Shown here piece by piece: positions 1 through 9,663 of a stretch of 19,102 nt of DNA; the stretch's first letter is position 1; each line of letters opens with the position of its first letter. The notes beneath the pieces were generated by a model. It ran no database searches. It was not told the DNA's origin and was given only the letters and a program-made list of their open reading frames with translations. This DNA comes from a virus (taxonomy: Duplodnaviria; Heunggongvirae; Uroviricota; Caudoviricetes). Made by a program: the position numbers and the translations under genes. The stretch lies in IMG/VR virus record IMGVR_UViG_2630968705_000015, one strand, 5' to 3'.

Positions 1-318
1 ATGAAAAAGACAGCTGCTATATCATTAATTAGTGTTTTTCTTATGTCTGGTTGTGCTGTGCATAATGATGAGACAAGTATCGGTAAATTCGGTCTTGCCT
101 ATAAAAGTAATATCCAGCGTAAACTCGATAACCAATACTACACTGAAGCCGAAGCATCTTTAGCCAGGGGCAGAATATCTGGTGCAGAAAATATAGTGAA
201 AAATGATGCAGCTAATTTCTGTGTTACTCAGGGCAAAAAAATGCAGATAGTTAACCTGAAGACTGAAGGGGCAGGATTACATGGCGTCGCGCGTCTGACA
301 TTCAAATGTGGAGAGTGA
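1..318 (+). CDS. yegR: Small lipoprotein (105 aa), bacterial flank; likely YegR-like by position
   Basis: ATG at position 1. N-terminus MKKTAAISLISVFLMSGC is a signal peptide with lipobox L-M-S-G-C. Lies on the bacterial side of the P2 core. Symbol is inferred from remembered E. coli K-12 gene order (yegQ-cyaR-ogrK-yegZ-yegR) and the 105-aa length, not from sequence recall. Confidence 0.6.
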   Translation: MKKTAAISLISVFLMSGCAVHNDETSIGKFGLAYKSNIQRKLDNQYYTEAEASLARGRISGAENIVKNDAANFCVTQGKKMQIVNLKTEGAGLHGVARLTFKCGE

Positions 319-550
319 GAATAGATTCAAGACTACCATGGACACATCCATTTTTATCTCTGATAAGGTATTCTTCAACACCATTATTGAATGTGAGTAA
401 TAATGACAAGCAGATAGATGAAACTACAGCAGAATTTTTATTTTATGCGGCTATCAGAAAATGATGGCATAAATATTCCTATGCTTTAGCTTCATTTTTT
501 GTAAGCGTCAAACATGCGCGTTCTGGCTGTGCGTAGCCGGACCCTGTGCG

Positions 551-583
551 AGCACGATGCCGTTAAGTGAAAGGCATCGTGCT
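551..583. repeat. Perfect 11-bp inverted repeat (AGCACGATGCC / GGCATCGTGCT) with 11-nt loop
   Basis: Read directly from the sequence. No flanking T-run on either strand, so not a canonical intrinsic terminator. A weaker hairpin (GGAAGGA ... TCCTTCC) follows at about 614-656. Confidence 0.5.
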
Positions 584-666
584 ATGAAGGGGAATTCTAT
601 CGATATGGTCAATGGAAGGAGGTAACCCGGTATGAATCCTTCCTTCTGTTTCATTGAATTACGCAT

Positions 667-693
667 AAAAAATAAGCCCGTGTAAGGGAGATT
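667..693. other. P2 attachment-site core at attL, identical to the 3' end of the cyaR (ryeE) sRNA gene
   Basis: AAAAAATAAGCCCGTGTAAGGGAGATT matches the 27-bp P2 att core as I recall it, and is the reverse complement of the CyaR 3' terminator (...AATCTCCCTTACACGGGCTTATTTTTT). Sequence to the right diverges from cyaR and runs into int. Confidence 0.75.
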
Positions 694-772
694 TAGGGTG
701 TCACCAGTAGGGGCTTTCAACGGTACAATGCGGGTTTGAGCGGCATAAATTACCACTGAAAGCCCTTAAACG

Positions 773-1786
773 TTACTCTACTGTGGACACTGTGTGGACA
801 CTCTCGGCTTCAGTACCACCTCTTAGCGGATTAAGAGAAATGGCGTCCTGAAGGTACTCTGGCGCAAAATGAGCGTAAACCATAGTTTGCTCAATCCGCG
901 TGTGACCTAGTATCCGTTGTAGCGTGATAATACTTCCTCCATTAATCATGAAATGAGTGGCAAAGCTGTGCCTTAGTGCATGTGTGGCTTGCCCCGTTGG
1001 CAAATCCGGTTTTATTGCTTTCATTGTTCGTCTGAAGCGAGGGTAATCAGCATCAGGGAATAAAAAACCTCGTTTGTTATCCGCGATCATTTTGGCAACA
1101 GCCTCTGAGATCGGGACGGTGCGTGGTTTGTTTGTTTTCGTTTTAACAAACGTGACGCGGTTATGGATGATATTTTCTGCTTTCAAACGAGCTGCTTCTC
1201 CCCAACGTGCTCCTGTACTCAGGCAAAGAATCGCAATCTTTTTATTGTCGCCGTCAAGTGCTGCAAGCAGTAAGGCAATTTCTTCCTGTGTGAGATAGCC
1301 TGTTTCTGGTTTTTCCTCCTTAAGCCTCTTTGTCCCTCTGATAGGGTGCTCACCAAAGAATAACTCCGCTTCAATCAGGGCTGTAAACATGCCGCTAATA
1401 CATGTTAAATCACGATTGATACTCGAAGGTTTAATACCCTGACTTCTTCGGGTGGCGCAGTACTGGCTGATAAGGGATTTCGTGATTTGAAATGCGCATG
1501 GGTCATTCGTTATTTTTGTGAAGATTTCAATTTTTCCAAGATTAGATTTCCCATGCTCTTCGTGTTTACCCTTTAAATCCCACCAGATCTGTGTCAGTTC
1601 CGACAGACGTCGTTTGTCTGTTGGTTTTGATAGCCATTCTTTATTGTGGTGGTTGTACAACGTGTATTTTTCGAAAGCGACAGCTTCGCTTTTCTTATCA
1701 AACTTCCTACGGATGCGTTTTCCGTTACGTCCAGTAGGGCGGATGTCCACTTCATATCGACCATCATCGAGTTTTTTGATTGCCAT
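773..1786 (-). CDS. int: Tyrosine integrase (P2 Int-like, 337 aa)
   Basis: ORF track. C-terminal HALRHSFATHF ... LGHTRIEQTMVYAHF fits the tyrosine-recombinase R/H-x-x-R/Y pattern. Adjacent to att core. GGAGGG ribosome-binding site upstream of the ATG. Confidence 0.9.
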   Translation of the reverse strand: MAIKKLDDGRYEVDIRPTGRNGKRIRRKFDKKSEAVAFEKYTLYNHHNKEWLSKPTDKRRLSELTQIWWDLKGKHEEHGKSNLGKIEIFTKITNDPCAFQITKSLISQYCATRRSQGIKPSSINRDLTCISGMFTALIEAELFFGEHPIRGTKRLKEEKPETGYLTQEEIALLLAALDGDNKKIAILCLSTGARWGEAARLKAENIIHNRVTFVKTKTNKPRTVPISEAVAKMIADNKRGFLFPDADYPRFRRTMKAIKPDLPTGQATHALRHSFATHFMINGGSIITLQRILGHTRIEQTMVYAHFAPEYLQDAISLNPLRGGTEAESVHTVSTVE

Positions 1787-1901
1787 CAGAAAACCCTCCG
1801 AGTGGTACTTTTTTTTGCTACTACTAATCGCTTTTTTCGTGGTGGCTGAAATTTAGCCACCAATAGTAGGCACTTGTGATGAATATATTCACGATAAATT
1901 G

Positions 1902-2201
1902 TTAACCAGTCTTTTGACCGGAGTGGGGCGACGTTGTTTCGTTTTGCCCAAAGTGTGCGAGAGCGGGCGCAATTTGCCCGGCTTCTGGAGCTACCTGATC
2001 AGTCATGAACCACAAAGTATATTTAGTAAATCTGGGATGTTGTAAGACCTTCATTATGGCTTCAACTCCAGCGTTTTTTGACCGGCTCTCATAGCTCGAA
2101 AGTGAGCTGTAGGCTACACCAGTTAATTCACTGAATTCTTTACGGTTTAACCTTTCAGATTCACGGATTAGCTTCAACTTCTCCGAAACGTCTATTGACA
2201 T
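1902..2201 (-). CDS. C: Immunity repressor (P2 C-like, 99 aa)
   Basis: Track ORF 1902..2273 starts at TTG. Internal ATG at 2199-2201 has a GGAG site 5 nt upstream and gives 99 aa. Helix-turn-helix-like segment QQ/KEFSELTGVAYSSLSSYE. Divergent from cox. Confidence 0.75.
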   Translation of the reverse strand: MSIDVSEKLKLIRESERLNRKEFSELTGVAYSSLSSYESRSKNAGVEAIMKVLQHPRFTKYTLWFMTDQVAPEAGQIAPALAHFGQNETTSPHSGQKTG

Positions 2202-2322
2202 AATTACTCCGATTGCGTAATTTCTTGCTGATTGTGTGAAATGTTGTGCTTCTGGAGTTATCCTTTTAGGCAATAATTAGCCATTAGGAGCCATTAGAAG
2301 CACTAATGGAGAATCGTAGCAG
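2202..2322. promoter_or_regulatory. Lysis-lysogeny switch region between C and cox, with repeated AGCCATTAG elements
   Basis: 121-bp gap between divergent C and cox starts. Direct repeats AGCCATTAG at 2279-2287 and 2289-2297, plus an inverted copy CTAATGG at 2303-2309. Promoters Pe/Pc not resolved. Confidence 0.5.
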
Positions 2323-2598
2323 ATGAATAGACAGCTTGTAAGCGTGACTGATGCCGTGCCTTATCAGGAGTTTGCAAAACTCATTGGTAAAACTCCAAGA
2401 GCTGTAAGGGGCATGATTGAGAAAGGGAAATTACCAGTTATTGAGATTACTGACCCTCAGTCAGTATCGGGGCGTGCTGGTGAATATTGGGTATACCTTC
2501 CGGCATGGAATAACGGACTAAAACTGGCTTATGAAAGCCGTCCTAAAGAGATTCGTGACGGCTGGTTGATGTGGTTAGGTCTCGGTGAACCACGTTAA
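2323..2598 (+). CDS. cox: Cox-like excisionase / transcriptional regulator (91 aa)
   Basis: ATG at 2323. 91 aa as in P2 Cox. First gene of the rightward early operon, opposite C. Confidence 0.8.
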   Translation: MNRQLVSVTDAVPYQEFAKLIGKTPRAVRGMIEKGKLPVIEITDPQSVSGRAGEYWVYLPAWNNGLKLAYESRPKEIRDGWLMWLGLGEPR

Positions 2599-4090: not shown

Positions 4091-4362
4091 GTATTCGTAT
4101 TGAAATTGGCGAACGTTATGTCGTTACCAGTGACAGCTTTCAGTTTATTCTCCACGAGAAAAAGAGAGCGGAAAGCGGTAAAAACGCCGGTCAGGAATGG
4201 CTGGCGGTGGTTGGTTATTACCCGAAATTAAGCCAGCTCGTTTCCGGCCTGATGCATCACGATATTCTGACCGGAAGCGCAAAGTCTTTTGCTGATTTAA
4301 ACGCGCAGGTTGAGCAACTCAGCAAGCGTTGTTCAGAGGCTTTTGGCTCATATGGCCGTTAA
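4087..4362 (+). CDS. Hypothetical early protein (91 aa)
   Basis: ATG at 4087 overlapping the upstream stop (ATGA), GGAG upstream. Last small ORF before A. Confidence 0.55.
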   Translation: MSIRIEIGERYVVTSDSFQFILHEKKRAESGKNAGQEWLAVVGYYPKLSQLVSGLMHHDILTGSAKSFADLNAQVEQLSKRCSEAFGSYGR

Positions 4363-6475
4363 AGCCTCCGGGCGTTTTGTCCCTCCGTCAGCATTTGCCG
4401 CAGGCACCGGTAAGACGTTTACCGGTGCTTACGCATGGAACGCGCCACGCGAGGCCGTCGGGCGCGAAAGACCCCTTACACGTGACGAGATGCGTCAGGT
4501 GCAAGGTGTTTTATCCACGATTAACCGCCTGCCTTACTTTTTGCGCTCGCTGTTTACTTCACGCTATGACTACATCCGGCGCAATAAAAGCCCGGTGCAC
4601 GGGTTTTATTTCCTCACATCCACTTTTCAGCGTCGTTTATGGCCGCGCATTGAGCGTGTGAATCAGCGCCATGAAATGAACACCGACGCGTCGTTACTGT
4701 TTCTGGCAGAGCGTGACCACTATGCGCGCCTGCCGGGAATGAATGACAAGGAGCTGAAAAAGTTTGCTGCCCGTATCTCATCGCAGCTTTTCATGATGTA
4801 TGAGGAACTCAGCGATGCCTGGGTGGATGCGCATGGCGAAAAAGAATCGCTGTTTACGGATGAGGCGCAGGCTCACCTCTATGGTCATGTTGCTGGCGCT
4901 GCACGTGCTTTCAATATTTCCCCTCTCTACTGGAAAAAATACCGTAAAGGGCAGATGACCACGAGGCAGGCATATTCTGCCATTGCCCGTCTGTTTAACG
5001 ATGAGTGGTGGACTCATCAGCTTAAAGGCCAGCGTATGCGCTGGCATGAGGCGTTACTGATTGCTGTCGGGGAGGTCAATAAAGACCGTTCTCCTTATGC
5101 CAGTAAACATGCCATTCGTGATGTGCGTGCACGCCGCCAGGCAAATCTGGAATTTCTTAAATCGTGTGATCTCGAAAACAGGGAAACCGGCGAGCGCATC
5201 GACCTTATCAGTAAGGTGATGGGCAGTATTTCTAATCCTGAAATTCGCCGGATGGAGCTGATGAACACCATTGCCGGTATTGAGCGTTATGCCGCAGCAG
5301 AGGGTGATGTGGGGATGTTTATCACGCTGACCGCGCCGTCAAAGTATCACCCGATACGTCAGGTCAGAAAAGGCGAAAGTAAAACCGTCCAGCTAAATCA
5401 CGGCTGGAACGATGAGGCATTTAATCCAAAGGATGCGCAGCGTTATCTCTGCCGTATCTGGAGCCTGATGCGCACGGCATTCAAGGATAATGATTTACAG
5501 GTCTACGGTTTGCGTGTCGTCGAGCCACACCACGACGGAACGCCGCACTGGCATATGATGCTTTTTTGTAATCCGCGCCAGCGTAACCAGATTATCGAAA
5601 TCATGCGTCGCTATGCGCTCAAAGAGGATGGCGACGAAAGAGGAGCCGCGCGAAACCGTTTTCAGGCAAAACACCTTAATCGGGGCGGTGCTGCGGGGTA
5701 TATCGCGAAATACATCTCAAAAAACATCGACGGCTATGCACTGGATGGTCAGCTCGATAACGATACCGGCAGACCTCTGAAAGATACTGCCGCGGCTGTT
5801 ACTGCATGGGCGTCAACGTGGCGCATCCCGCAATTTAAAACGGTTGGTCTGCCGACAATGGGGGCTTACCGTGAACTACGCAAATTGCCGCGCGGCGTCA
5901 GCATTGCTGATGAGTTTGACGAGCGCGTCGAGGCTGCACGCGCCGCCGCAGACAGTGGTGATTTTGCGCTGTATATCAGCGCGCAGGGTGGGGCAAATGT
6001 CCCGCGCGATTGTCAGACTGTCAGGGTCGCCCGTAGCCCGTCGGATGACGTTAACGAGTACGAGGAAGAAGTCGAGAGAGTGGTCGGCATTTACGCGCCG
6101 CATCTCGGCGCGCGTCATATTCATATCACCAGAACGACGGACTGGCGCATTGTGCCGAAAGTTCCGGTCGTTGAGCCTTTGACTTTAAAAAGCGGCATCG
6201 CCGCGCCTCGGAGTCCTGTCAATAACTGTGGAAAGCTCACTGGTGGTGATGCTTCGTTACTGGCTCCCACACCTTCTGAGCACGCCGCAGCAGTGCTTAA
6301 TCTGGTAGATGACGGTGTTATCGAATGGAATGACCCGGAGGTCTTGAAAGTGCTTAATCTGGCATTGAAAATAGAAGCATCACGTAAATGTACAAACAAA
6401 GGAGACACACGAGCAGGCATAGTTGGCGAGTCAACCGCGATTTTCAATGTACAGGATGCTGATAATCAACAATGA
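4352..6475 (+). CDS. A: Rolling-circle replication initiator (P2 A-like)
   Basis: HUH-type motif PHWHMM (about 5543-5560) and tyrosine motif GYIAKYISK (about 5697-5723), typical of RCR initiators. Start uncertain: track gives TTG 4310; first in-frame ATG is 4352, overlapping the upstream stop. Confidence 0.8.
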   Translation: MAVKASGRFVPPSAFAAGTGKTFTGAYAWNAPREAVGRERPLTRDEMRQVQGVLSTINRLPYFLRSLFTSRYDYIRRNKSPVHGFYFLTSTFQRRLWPRIERVNQRHEMNTDASLLFLAERDHYARLPGMNDKELKKFAARISSQLFMMYEELSDAWVDAHGEKESLFTDEAQAHLYGHVAGAARAFNISPLYWKKYRKGQMTTRQAYSAIARLFNDEWWTHQLKGQRMRWHEALLIAVGEVNKDRSPYASKHAIRDVRARRQANLEFLKSCDLENRETGERIDLISKVMGSISNPEIRRMELMNTIAGIERYAAAEGDVGMFITLTAPSKYHPIRQVRKGESKTVQLNHGWNDEAFNPKDAQRYLCRIWSLMRTAFKDNDLQVYGLRVVEPHHDGTPHWHMMLFCNPRQRNQIIEIMRRYALKEDGDERGAARNRFQAKHLNRGGAAGYIAKYISKNIDGYALDGQLDNDTGRPLKDTAAAVTAWASTWRIPQFKTVGLPTMGAYRELRKLPRGVSIADEFDERVEAARAAADSGDFALYISAQGGANVPRDCQTVRVARSPSDDVNEYEEEVERVVGIYAPHLGARHIHITRTTDWRIVPKVPVVEPLTLKSGIAAPRSPVNNCGKLTGGDASLLAPTPSEHAAAVLNLVDDGVIEWNDPEVLKVLNLALKIEASRKCTNKGDTRAGIVGESTAIFNVQDADNQQ

Positions 6476-6596: not shown

Positions 6597-7844
6597 ATGT
6601 CGATTTATCAAGGTGGTAACAAGTTAAATGAGGATGATTTTCGTTCTCACGTTTATTCCTTGTGTCAATTAGATAATGTTGGCGTTCTGTTAGGTGCTGG
6701 TGCTTCTGTCGGTTGTGGTGGGAAAACGATGAAAGATGTATGGAAATCGTTTAAGCAAAACTACCCTGAGCTTTTGGGAGCACTTATTGATAAATATCTT
6801 CTGGTTTCGCAAATTGATTCTGATAACAATTTGGTCAATGTTGAACTTTTGATAGATGAAGCAACTAAATTTCTTTCTGTAGCTAAAACTAGACGATGTG
6901 AAGATGAAGAGGAGGAATTCAGAAAGATATTAAGTTCATTATATAAAGAGGTTACGAAGGCTGCATTATTAACAGGAGAACAGTTTAGAGAGAAAAATCA
7001 GGGTAAAAAAGATGCGTTTAAATATCACAAAGAGTTAATTTCAAAATTAATTTCAAATAGACAGCCCGGTCAGTCGGCTCCGGCAATTTTTACAACAAAT
7101 TATGATTTGGCCTTAGAGTGGGCTGCAGAAGATTTAGGAATACAGTTGTTTAATGGTTTTTCTGGGCTACATACACGGCAGTTTTATCCCCAGAATTTTG
7201 ATTTGGCTTTCAGAAATGTAAATGCGAAGGGCGAAGCAAGATTCGGACATTATCATGCGTATCTCTATAAATTACATGGCTCACTTACGTGGTATCAAAA
7301 TGATAGCTTGACTGTTAACGAAGTTAGTGCATCTCAAGCATATGATGAATATATTAATGACATAATCAATAAAGATGACTTTTATCGCGGTCAACATTTG
7401 ATTTATCCAGGGGCGAATAAATATAGCCATACAATCGGCTTCGTTTATGGAGAGATGTTTAGACGTTTTGGGGAGTTTATTTCGAAACCTCAAACAGCGT
7501 TGTTCATAAATGGGTTTGGTTTCGGTGATTATCATATAAATAGAATAATATTAGGCGCGTTACTGAATCCATCTTTCCATGTTGTTATATATTATCCTGA
7601 ATTGAAAGAAGCAATTACCAAAGTAAGTAAGGGTGGCGGTTCGGAAGCTGAGAAAGCTATTGTTACTTTAAAAAATATGGCTTTCAATCAAGTAACTGTA
7701 GTTGGGGGAGGAAGCAAGGCATATTTTAATAGTTTCGTAGAACATCTACCATACCCTGTGCTCTTTCCACGAGATAATATTGTTGATGAGTTGGTTGAAG
7801 CAATTGCTAATCTTTCTAAAGGAGAAGGTAATGTCCCTTTTTAA
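6597..7844 (+). CDS. SIR2-like (sirtuin-family, predicted NAD+-hydrolysing) defence protein
   Basis: Motifs LLGAGAS (about 6694-6708), FTTNYD (about 7092-7106) and KLHGS (about 7273-7284) correspond to the GAGxS / TTNYD / HG signature of SIR2-like domains such as Thoeris ThsA. ATG at 6591 or 6597; 6597 has better spacing from the AAAAGG site. AT-rich. Confidence 0.8.
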   Translation: MSIYQGGNKLNEDDFRSHVYSLCQLDNVGVLLGAGASVGCGGKTMKDVWKSFKQNYPELLGALIDKYLLVSQIDSDNNLVNVELLIDEATKFLSVAKTRRCEDEEEEFRKILSSLYKEVTKAALLTGEQFREKNQGKKDAFKYHKELISKLISNRQPGQSAPAIFTTNYDLALEWAAEDLGIQLFNGFSGLHTRQFYPQNFDLAFRNVNAKGEARFGHYHAYLYKLHGSLTWYQNDSLTVNEVSASQAYDEYINDIINKDDFYRGQHLIYPGANKYSHTIGFVYGEMFRRFGEFISKPQTALFINGFGFGDYHINRIILGALLNPSFHVVIYYPELKEAITKVSKGGGSEAEKAIVTLKNMAFNQVTVVGGGSKAYFNSFVEHLPYPVLFPRDNIVDELVEAIANLSKGEGNVPF

Positions 7845-9663
7845 ACTTACTGAAATCTCGGCTATTGGATACGTTGTAGGATTAGAAGGGGAAAGAATTA
7901 GGATAAACCTGCATGAGGGGTTGCAAGGCAGATTAGCATCGCATAGAAAGGGGGTGAGCTCAGTAACGCAACCAGGAGATCTTATTGGGTTCGATGCAGG
8001 TAATATATTAGTTGTCGCAAGAGTGACAGATATGGCATTTGTTGAAGCGGATAAAGCGCATAAGGCAAATGTAGGCACATCTGATTTAGCTGATATACCT
8101 CTAAGACAAATTATCGCCTATGCAATTGGCTTTGTGAAAAGGGAGTTAAATGGTTATGTTTTTATATCAGAAGATTGGCGCTTACCTGCATTGGGTTCTT
8201 CTGCTGTTCCTTTGACTTCAGATTTTTTGAACATCATTTATAGTATTGATAAAGAAGAACTCCCAAAAGCGGTTGAATTAGGTGTGGATTCTCGAACTAA
8301 AACCGTTAAGATATTTGCAAGTGTTGATAAATTATTGTCGCGACACTTAGCCGTTCTTGGTAGTACAGGATATGGTAAATCAAATTTCAATGCTTTGTTA
8401 ACGAGGAAGGTTTCTGAAAAATACCCTAACTCAAGAATAGTTATTTTTGACATAAATGGTGAATACGCGCAAGCTTTTACAGGTATTCCAAATGTAAAGC
8501 ACACTATTCTAGGGGAATCCCCAAATGTTGATAGTTTGGAAAAAAAGCAGCAAAAGGGTGAGCTATATAGTGAAGAGTATTATTGTTATAAAAAGATACC
8601 ATATCAGGCATTAGGTTTTGCTGGGTTAATTAAATTATTAAGACCAAGTGATAAAACACAATTGCCCGCATTAAGAAATGCATTAAGTGCAATTAATCGG
8701 ACTCATTTTAAAAGCCGTAATATTTACTTGAAAAAAGATGATGGTGAAACTTTTCTTTTGTATGATGATTGTCGTGACACAAATCAAAGTAAATTGGCTG
8801 AGTGGTTGGATTTATTAAGGCGTAGACGTCTTAAAAGAACGAATGTATGGCCACCGTTTAAAAGTTTAGCGACTTTGGTTGCTGAATTTGGATGTGTAGC
8901 TGCTGACCGTTCTAATGGAAGTAAACGTGACGCGTTTGGTTTTAGTAACGTGTTGCCATTGGTAAAAATCATACAACAACTTGCAGAGGATATAAGATTT
9001 AAATCTATTGTTAATTTAAATGGAGGGGGTGAGCTAGCAGATGGTGGAACGCATTGGGATAAAGCTATGAGTGATGAAGTTGATTACTTCTTTGGTAAGG
9101 AAAAAGGACAAGAAAATGATTGGAATGTTCATATAGTTAATATGAAAAATTTGGCACAAGATCATGCTCCAATGTTACTTAGTGCATTGTTGGAGATGTT
9201 TGCTGAGATACTATTTAGACGTGGGCAGGAACGTTCGTATCCTACGGTACTTTTGTTGGAAGAAGCGCATCATTACCTGCGTGACCCTTATGCTGAAATT
9301 GACTCACAGATTAAAGCATATGAACGACTTGCTAAAGAAGGTAGGAAATTCAAATGCTCTTTAATTGTCAGTACTCAGCGACCCTCAGAGCTTTCTCCTA
9401 CTGTTTTGGCAATGTGTTCAAACTGGTTTTCGTTACGTTTGACTAATGAAAGAGATTTACAGGCTCTCAGATATGCAATGGAAAGCGGTAATGAACAAAT
9501 CTTAAAACAAATATCAGGTTTACCAAGAGGTGATGCTGTTGCATTTGGTTCTGCATTTAATTTGCCTGTAAGAATTTCAATTAATCAAGCAAGGCCAGGG
9601 CCAAAATCTTCAGATGCTGTTTTTTCTGAAGAATGGGCTAATTGTACAGAATTACGTTGTTAA
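7831..9663 (+). CDS. HerA/FtsK-like P-loop ATPase, partner of the SIR2-like protein
   Basis: Walker A GSTGYGKS (about 8359-8382), Walker B VLLLEEAHHY (about 9247-9276), STQRPSEL motif, and a roughly 175-aa N-terminal domain before the P-loop. Track start is TTG 7780; ATG 7831 follows an AAAGGAGAAGG site and overlaps the SIR2 stop by 14 nt. ATG 7783 is an alternative start. Confidence 0.8.
   Translation: MSLFKLTEISAIGYVVGLEGERIRINLHEGLQGRLASHRKGVSSVTQPGDLIGFDAGNILVVARVTDMAFVEADKAHKANVGTSDLADIPLRQIIAYAIGFVKRELNGYVFISEDWRLPALGSSAVPLTSDFLNIIYSIDKEELPKAVELGVDSRTKTVKIFASVDKLLSRHLAVLGSTGYGKSNFNALLTRKVSEKYPNSRIVIFDINGEYAQAFTGIPNVKHTILGESPNVDSLEKKQQKGELYSEEYYCYKKIPYQALGFAGLIKLLRPSDKTQLPALRNALSAINRTHFKSRNIYLKKDDGETFLLYDDCRDTNQSKLAEWLDLLRRRRLKRTNVWPPFKSLATLVAEFGCVAADRSNGSKRDAFGFSNVLPLVKIIQQLAEDIRFKSIVNLNGGGELADGGTHWDKAMSDEVDYFFGKEKGQENDWNVHIVNMKNLAQDHAPMLLSALLEMFAEILFRRGQERSYPTVLLLEEAHHYLRDPYAEIDSQIKAYERLAKEGRKFKCSLIVSTQRPSELSPTVLAMCSNWFSLRLTNERDLQALRYAMESGNEQILKQISGLPRGDAVAFGSAFNLPVRISINQARPGPKSSDAVFSEEWANCTELRC

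Follow-up and report, generated by a model that had tools for sequence, protein, structure and literature searches.

What lies on the chromosomal side of a P2-type prophage that occupies the 3' end of a small RNA gene, and what becomes of that gene when the phage integrates? We take the 3' end of cyaR to be the classical P2 site locH, and Barreiro and Haggard-Ljungquist are said to have described in 1992 the P2 remnant that K-12 carries at locH. A P2-type prophage at cyaR/locH is an arrangement that is already known. In the literature that we searched, explicit documentation of P2-type prophages at cyaR was found in Table 2 of Archer et al. 2011 alone (PMC3032704), in which the P2-type elements Wphi2 of E. 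coli W, ogr-D' of K-12 and P2*B of E. coli B are all entered with the cyaR RNA as their insertion site; in Nilsson 2011 (PMC3448106) the names cyaR and locH do not appear. The present study concerns the left end of such a prophage in a stretch of DNA of 19,102 nucleotides, IMG/VR record IMGVR_UViG_2630968705_000015, which is called the window throughout. An earlier note, made from the letters of the window alone, had read this end as a junction in which attL retains only a 27-bp core and in which the flank to the left of the core is bacterial. Our analysis leads to a different answer for the flank. At a probability that we put at roughly 85%, window 596-807 is the attL of a P2-type prophage at cyaR, integrated in the surviving attR core of a fossil P2-like prophage. 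The features of the region are collected in Table 1.

Table 1. Features at the left end of the window, with the evidence for each
Feature	Position in window	Strand or placement	Evidence or remark
yegR, 105-aa predicted lipoprotein, Pfam YegR PF27694	1-318	+	ORF; annotated in related genomes; inside the probable fossil block
AT-rich variable segment, 176 bp, 32% GC, directly after the yegR stop	319-494		genome comparison
Conserved flank, inside the probable fossil block	495-595		matches in 5418/5426 E. coli genomes
Stable hairpin	551-583		folding against shuffles; 16 nt before the probable fossil P arm
Probable fossil P arm, now the B arm of attB/attL	596-666	+	alignment to the resident and P2 P arms
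Core (O), crossover region	667-693	+	identical to the attP core of P2; reverse complement of the CyaR 3' end
P' arm of the resident prophage	694-807	+	0 mismatches to P2
Cox-binding region	710-783	within P' arm	P2 annotation
P' Int arm-type repeats	781-807	overlap int 3' end	P2 annotation
int, P2 tyrosine integrase, 337 aa	773-1786	-	ORF, domains, 336/337 aa identical to P2 Int
Immunity repressor C	1902-2201	-	position, annotation
cox, excision directionality factor and Pc repressor	2323-2598	+	ORF, annotation

The left junction of the resident prophage

The 27-bp core, AAAAAATAAGCCCGTGTAAGGGAGATT, occurs once in the window, without mismatches and with no copy expected from shuffled sequences, and it is identical in all 27 positions to the annotated attP core of P2 (AF063097 24356-24382). 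The last 27 nt of CyaR, as given by the Rfam alignment of the copy at attR, are the reverse complement of this core, which in that orientation mirrors the terminator loop, the 3' half-stem and the U-tract of the RNA. The earlier note had proposed this double identity and had named the alignment of the core to attP and cyaR as the place where its reading could fail; the 27-mer matches both. To the right of the core the agreement with P2 continues, as P2 24356-24496 and window 667-807 correspond base by base with 0 mismatches, including the interval P2 24383-24496, in which the Cox and Int P' sites are annotated. The integrase has the Pfam domains Int_N and Phage_integrase, and the 3' end of its gene faces the core. 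A megablast search against phage records returned bacteriophage P2 at 97% identity, with attP, the Int, IHF and Cox sites and int annotated under the match.

The DNA to the right of the core had been described as phage arm rather than cyaR body, and our searches agree with this description. Rfam RF00112 gave no match in window 1-2400 even at E<=10, and within 319-772 no full-length match to the CyaR covariance model was found, only the last 27 nt of the RNA being present there. The Rfam scan of 1-2400 at E<=10 returned chance-level matches only (SNORD27, CRISPR-DR52, Flavo-1 and snoTBR7), and a promoter and terminator scan of the same interval found sites no more numerous than in shuffles, with none of note in 319-772. 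A terminator for int re-formed at attL by the core and the upstream P' sequence was also considered and was rejected, the fold being weak (z -0.17). The junction shares its core, Cox boxes, P' Int arm sites and int with the attL of P2 at locH, and its chromosomal site is that of Wphi2, P2*B and the K-12 ogr-D' element (PMC3032704). Every cis element that excision would require on the attL side is intact, the Cox boxes and P' Int arm sites as well as the core. In the mechanism that we propose, P2 Int, aided by IHF, would have carried out recombination between attP of the phage and the 27-bp core with which cyaR ends in the chromosome (locH), and window 596-807 would be the attL (B-O-P') of a P2-type (Peduovirus) prophage.

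The right junction, the empty site and the cyaR gene

The window differs by 1 mismatch in 19102 from the genome of E. coli O78:H51 APEC E19025 (NZ_CP126931.1), from which we took 44 kb around the locus (L001, in which positions 4596-4622 correspond to window 667-693). In these 44 kb the core is present exactly at two places, L001 4596-4622 and L001 39163-39189, in direct orientation and with 34.6 kb between them. Ahead of the second core come D, ogrK (L001 38843-39061) with the ogr terminator, and a P arm that hardly differs from the P2 one, and a full-length cyaR is found at this end on the minus strand of L001 39166-39251 (RF00112, 100.7 bits against a gathering threshold of 47, model positions 1-85 of 85). 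Two direct core repeats, one of them at cyaR, thus identify the element as a 34.6-kb P2-type prophage with its attL in the window and its attR at cyaR. The earlier note had placed an intact cyaR and a second core at attR outside the window and had staked its model on the latter; the exact copy was found at the far end, and the model stands on this point. The prophage is thereby delimited exactly, core to core, from window 667 onward, which is useful mainly for annotation.

The unoccupied site was searched with a synthetic query in which window 495-693 is joined to the cyaR side of attR. In strain AH01 the empty site, consisting of flank, core and cyaR, is identical to this query in 340 of 340 positions. 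The query is covered by at least 80%, contiguously or nearly so, in 4572 complete E. coli genomes, a count that takes in K-12-type genomes with a small ogr-D' remnant intervening, and the junction of yegR, flank, core and int as it stands in the window is found in 783 of 5426 complete genomes.

It had also been suggested that integration into an sRNA gene can alter the expression or the 3' end of CyaR. In the lysogen, cyaR (87 nt) and the 95 nt downstream of it, which comprise the P arm and the ogr terminator, are identical to those of K-12, presumably the strain in which CyaR was characterised. The copy at attR folds as the full CyaR terminator (-18.9 kcal/mol, z -4.4); the half-terminator at attL has a z of -0.17. 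When the lysogen is compared with the empty site at cyaR, the differing DNA lies only beyond the U-tract. As phage and host have identical cores, like is replaced with like and cyaR is rebuilt unchanged at attR. An effect of the integration on CyaR is therefore not supported, none being visible in the sequence.

With regard to its other genes, the prophage differs from P2 in content and in nothing of kind. Window 6597-9663 encodes a SIR2-family protein (415 aa) and a HerA-type ATPase (610 aa), with PADLOC values of 1e-189 for SIR2 and 2e-277 for HerA, and is a predicted SIR2-HerA anti-phage defence pair, carried as cargo in the slot that separates gene A from the portal gene Q. Gene A (replication; window 4352-6475) is flagged in RefSeq as missing its C-terminus, and ISEc12, an element of the IS21 family, splits the gpS gene just beyond the right end of the window (L001 22666-25704). 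Because of the insertion in gpS and the truncation of gene A, the prophage looks defective and may never excise productively. On the chromosomal side of attR, E19025 carries a ParE/RelE-ParD toxin-antitoxin pair between trhP (yegQ) and yegP (L001 40798-41392), and the K-12 annotation of the trhP-yegP interval has no ParE/RelE-ParD genes.

The flank as a decayed P arm

Similarity to the phage does not end at the left edge of the core. Window 596-666 is identical to the P arm of the resident prophage at attR in 52 of 71 positions (73%, z 8.8, with 0 of 5000 dinucleotide shuffles as good) and to the P arm of P2 in 49 of 72 (z 6.8), and local blastn between window 600-664 and the resident P arm gives an E value of 2e-5. 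The megablast match to P2 extends left past the core to window 600, where the Int P-arm site begins in the P2 annotation, and window 600-627 agrees with this Int arm-type site in 22 of 28 positions. The outer Int repeat is kept with one change (TATGGTCA for TGTGGTCA), the inner repeat is lost (GAAGGAGG for TGTGGACG), and the IHF site region of P2 corresponds to window ~631-666. Such a fossil arm would presumably no longer bind Int and IHF usefully. The statement that attL keeps only the 27-bp core thus holds for the cyaR sequence, but it fails for the phage, since similarity to attR and attP runs about 70 nt further left.

The flank at the empty site of AH01 is identical to that of the window, and copies of about 90% identity are found in 5418 of 5426 genomes. 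K-12 retains the fossil flank and, after it, a truncated core of attL, AAAAAAATAAGCCCGTGTA, that is joined to D'. This distribution bears on two other explanations. One of them is that the P arm in the flank is recent and strain-specific, left over from a tandem double lysogen or from a rearrangement of the present prophage. Tandem P2 lysogens would indeed put a P arm to the left of the core-P' junction, and the P2 match does begin at window 600. However, the flank has only 73% identity to the resident P arm while the P' side is 100% P2, and the same flank stands at the unoccupied site of AH01 and, in copies of about 90% identity, in nearly all E. coli, so that we find a recent origin scarcely credible. 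The other explanation is that flank 319-666 is ordinary bacterial intergenic DNA and that attL shares only the 27-bp core with the phage. Its presence at the empty site and in almost every genome makes the flank operationally the chromosomal B arm, as this explanation would have it, but a similarity to the P arm that is collinear, abuts the core and reaches a z of 8.8 argues against a plain chromosomal origin, as does the opposite end of the block, which is described below.

We also noted a difference between this prophage and P2 in the 14 nt of the P arm beside the core (window 653-666; L001 39149-39162; P2 24342-24355). The resident prophage and the K-12 remnant have CATTGTATTACGCG at this place, the fossil flank has CATTGAATTACGCA and P2 has CAATTTATTGTACG, and CATTGTATTACGCG is closer to the fossil flank than the P2 version is. 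This likeness may be due to sequence exchanged by the two arms, phage and fossil, or to no more than the adaptation of a P2 lineage to locH.

The far end of the block and the sister lineages

A second relic is located 280-398 bp to the left of the window start. L001 3532-3650 matches the resident core and P' arm with 74.4% identity over 121 nt (local blastn, E 1e-14) and P2 with 74.6% over 122 nt (E 9e-14), and in multiple alignment a core with 18 of 27 positions kept, the Cox region and the two P' Int repeats follow one another collinearly; the identification of so decayed a core on the yegS side rests on its collinearity with the P' arm. The segment lies upstream of yegS, where K-12 has a further 70-nt deletion. 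On this alignment, L001 3532-3650 represents the old attL of a P2-like prophage, now fossil, within which yegR lies.

A scan for the cyaR pattern, with one genome per species, gave at least 120 enterobacterial loci, and E. fergusonii, E. marmotae and E. ruysiae were not among the matches listed. In most species representatives among these matches, 75-100 nt separate the cyaR terminator from yegS; in Escherichia sp. E1V33 the distance is 85 nt. The extra DNA between cyaR and yegS in E. coli amounts to about 0.9-1.06 kb. In the alignment of E1V33 with E. coli, homology splits inside the core at both ends of the block and resumes from CTGATTTTTT, a second copy of the core end, into the yegS promoter. 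The pristine Escherichia site is represented by one genome only among the matches listed, E1V33, and the age of the fossil is not bracketed by it.

Between the yegS promoter and cyaR, the order of the block is attL relic, AT-rich DNA, yegR, hairpin, P-arm relic and core. This is the order of a P2-like prophage skeleton, which implies that the present prophage integrated in the surviving attR core of the fossil. Decayed arms and cores are found in direct orientation at both ends, and the block is absent from a sister lineage, E1V33, with the break at the att core. Phage genes were not found inside the block, where tblastx and blastn against the resident prophage matched the two arms only. Taken together, these findings make a fossil P2-like prophage the most likely identity of the entire yegR block, which nearly all E. 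coli carry. We infer that the older P2-like prophage would have inserted first and would then have decayed to the block of ~1.06 kb. A decayed core and P' arm at the opposite end of the block, and the absence of the block from E1V33 and from most enterobacterial species examined among the matches listed, make it improbable that the flank is plain bacterial DNA, as it was originally taken to be; 596-666 would be a decayed P2 P arm in a block that is bounded by a second arm relic.

P arms of the P2 type beside cyaR are not confined to E. coli. They follow cyaR directly and clearly in at least 10 of the at least 120 species loci and in partial form in at least 7 more, and among the matches listed they occur in Citrobacter, Buttiauxella, Enterobacter, Trabulsiella and E. 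albertii. P arms after cyaR in so many genera indicate that the 3' end of cyaR is an Enterobacteriaceae-wide site for P2-like phages; the survey speaks against a P-arm-like sequence having been ancestral next to cyaR in the family as a whole. P arms at these loci also bear on the possibility of a transfer in the reverse direction, by which P2-type phages would have taken their P arm and part of P' from the cyaR-yegR region of E. coli through aberrant excision. The resemblance of CATTGTATTACGCG to the flank near the core, greater than that to the P2 sequence, suggests some exchange between flank and phage and would agree with such a transfer. Nevertheless, well-conserved P arms with both Int repeats adjoin cyaR in P2-like elements of Citrobacter, Buttiauxella, Enterobacter, Trabulsiella and others, whereas the E. 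coli copy has lost the inner repeat and the block is missing from E1V33. A chromosomal origin would, moreover, leave unexplained the second decayed core and P' arm in direct orientation. We therefore judge the reverse transfer to be very unlikely, and a fossil P2-like prophage remains our preferred reading of the block.

yegR, the AT-rich segment and the hairpins

Window 319-666, between yegR and the core, has no coding sequence. The AT-rich segment at 319-494 is present in ~945 complete E. coli genomes and is absent from K-12-type genomes, and neither terminal repeats nor a function were recognised for it. The PF27694 domain is found in all YegR homologues, and in a search of 5.8 billion proteins the family was almost restricted to E. 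coli and Shigella. By tblastn against 50,697 phage records, no phage homologues of YegR were found apart from records with host flank. Two phage records, ON470606.1 (32017-32649) and AY639599.1, include yegR and the fossil flank beyond attL, and both are more likely to be predicted prophages, or clones that contain host DNA, than packaged genomes. Of two distant YegR homologues, one lies among IS elements in an Enterobacter and the other in an ordinary chromosomal context. YegR as phage cargo was considered and is unsupported, there being no genuine phage homologue and the distant homologues standing in non-phage contexts; yegR may have entered after the decay of the phage. In the literature searched, which did not extend to subscription journals, we found no description of yegR as prophage-derived.

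Two hairpins had been reported in the flank, at 551-583 and at about 614-656, and they fared differently. The hairpin at 551-583 has a perfect stem of 11 bp and a loop of 11 nt, with folding energies of -20.8/-19.3 kcal/mol and z values of -5.4 for the plus strand and -7.3 for the minus strand; none of 200 shuffles matched its stability. The hairpin at 614-656, in contrast, has z values of -1.1/-1.6, with 23 and 14 of 200 shuffles folding as well, and 20 of its bases are missing in K-12-type E. coli, so that it was rejected as neither beyond chance nor conserved. Neither hairpin has an Rfam match (1-2400, E<=10).

The hairpin at 551-583 is close to the place that the ogr terminator takes in P2. 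The region 495-550 with the hairpin aligns to ogr or the ogr terminator only loosely by MAFFT and gave no blast matches. No U-tract follows the stem on either strand and the terminator scan made no call, and its candidacy as a rho-independent terminator was rejected, the stem being present and the U-tract lacking. It could be the old stem of a late-operon terminator or a 3' structure of yegR. One may ask whether it is a functional RNA element, such as a 3' stabiliser or terminator of yegR or a part of an unannotated sRNA, rather than a phage relic. High stability and a stem that is invariant in three divergent E. coli (including K-12 and ECMA0423), while the loop and the neighbouring bases vary, are in favour of a functional element, as is its place 57 nt after the yegR stop in K-12-type strains. 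The missing U-tract and terminator call and the missing Rfam match weigh on the other side, and the invariance of the stem means that covariation is absent. A functional RNA is in our opinion a possibility of some weight, though the less probable one.

Discussion

The 3' end of CyaR itself offers a further indication of the history of the locus. In E. coli the two halves of the cyaR terminator are GCCTGTGT and ACACGGGC, and in E1V33 and E. albertii the same 5' half is combined with ACGCAGGC. In four Kluyvera loci the halves are fully complementary, GCCCGTGT with ACACGGGC. The E. coli 3' half, ACACGGGC, equals the sequence of the P2 core, and its difference from ACGCAGGC in E1V33 and E. albertii is the pattern expected if a phage core wrote in the 3' half. 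This suggests that in E. coli a phage core replaced the original 3' end of CyaR. We think it somewhat more probable than the opposite, as far as sequence comparison can tell, that locH is not native: it would be the attR left by a ~1-kb fossil P2-like prophage, which almost every E. coli examined carries and whose integration put the yegR block between cyaR and yegS and overwrote the 3' half of the CyaR terminator with the phage core.

The fossil should be distinguished from the P2 remnant that is already annotated in K-12. Beside cyaR, RefSeq annotates that remnant as the cryptic prophage PR-X (ogrK, yegZ, which is D', and attR), of 629 bp. The present prophage and PR-X share the locus and the attR junction, with cyaR and the adjoining 95 nt identical, and K-12 keeps both the fossil flank and the truncated attL core. 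PR-X is younger, however, with ogr and D' still recognisable. The older fossil, in which yegR is situated, retains no phage genes and falls outside what is annotated as PR-X. The orphan gene yegR and its surroundings would thus fall inside prophage-derived boundaries that the PR-X annotation of K-12 leaves out.

The arrangement at cyaR is also comparable to that of phages at the 3' ends of tRNA, tmRNA and sRNA genes, in which attP brings the 3' end of the gene, and the gene is rebuilt at one junction while a displaced partial copy is left at the other. It differs from integration of the tRNA type in that the target is the terminator of an Hfq-dependent sRNA and in that the functional 3' half of the E. 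coli terminator, ACACGGGC, is the one that the phage carries. In this respect the locus would be an example of an sRNA terminator that was captured and rewritten by a phage core.

For the delimitation of prophages, the locus carries a warning that the 'bacterial flanks' by which prophages are bounded can themselves be phage relics, by which automated border calling can be led astray. We regard the fossil prophage as a modest evolutionary footnote and not as a new kind of system. If the proposed history is true, the Hfq-binding 3' end of E. coli CyaR is phage-derived, and the exact 27/27 core allowed the locus to perpetuate itself as a landing pad for later P2 phages. A fossil att site can, on this evidence, go on recruiting related phages.
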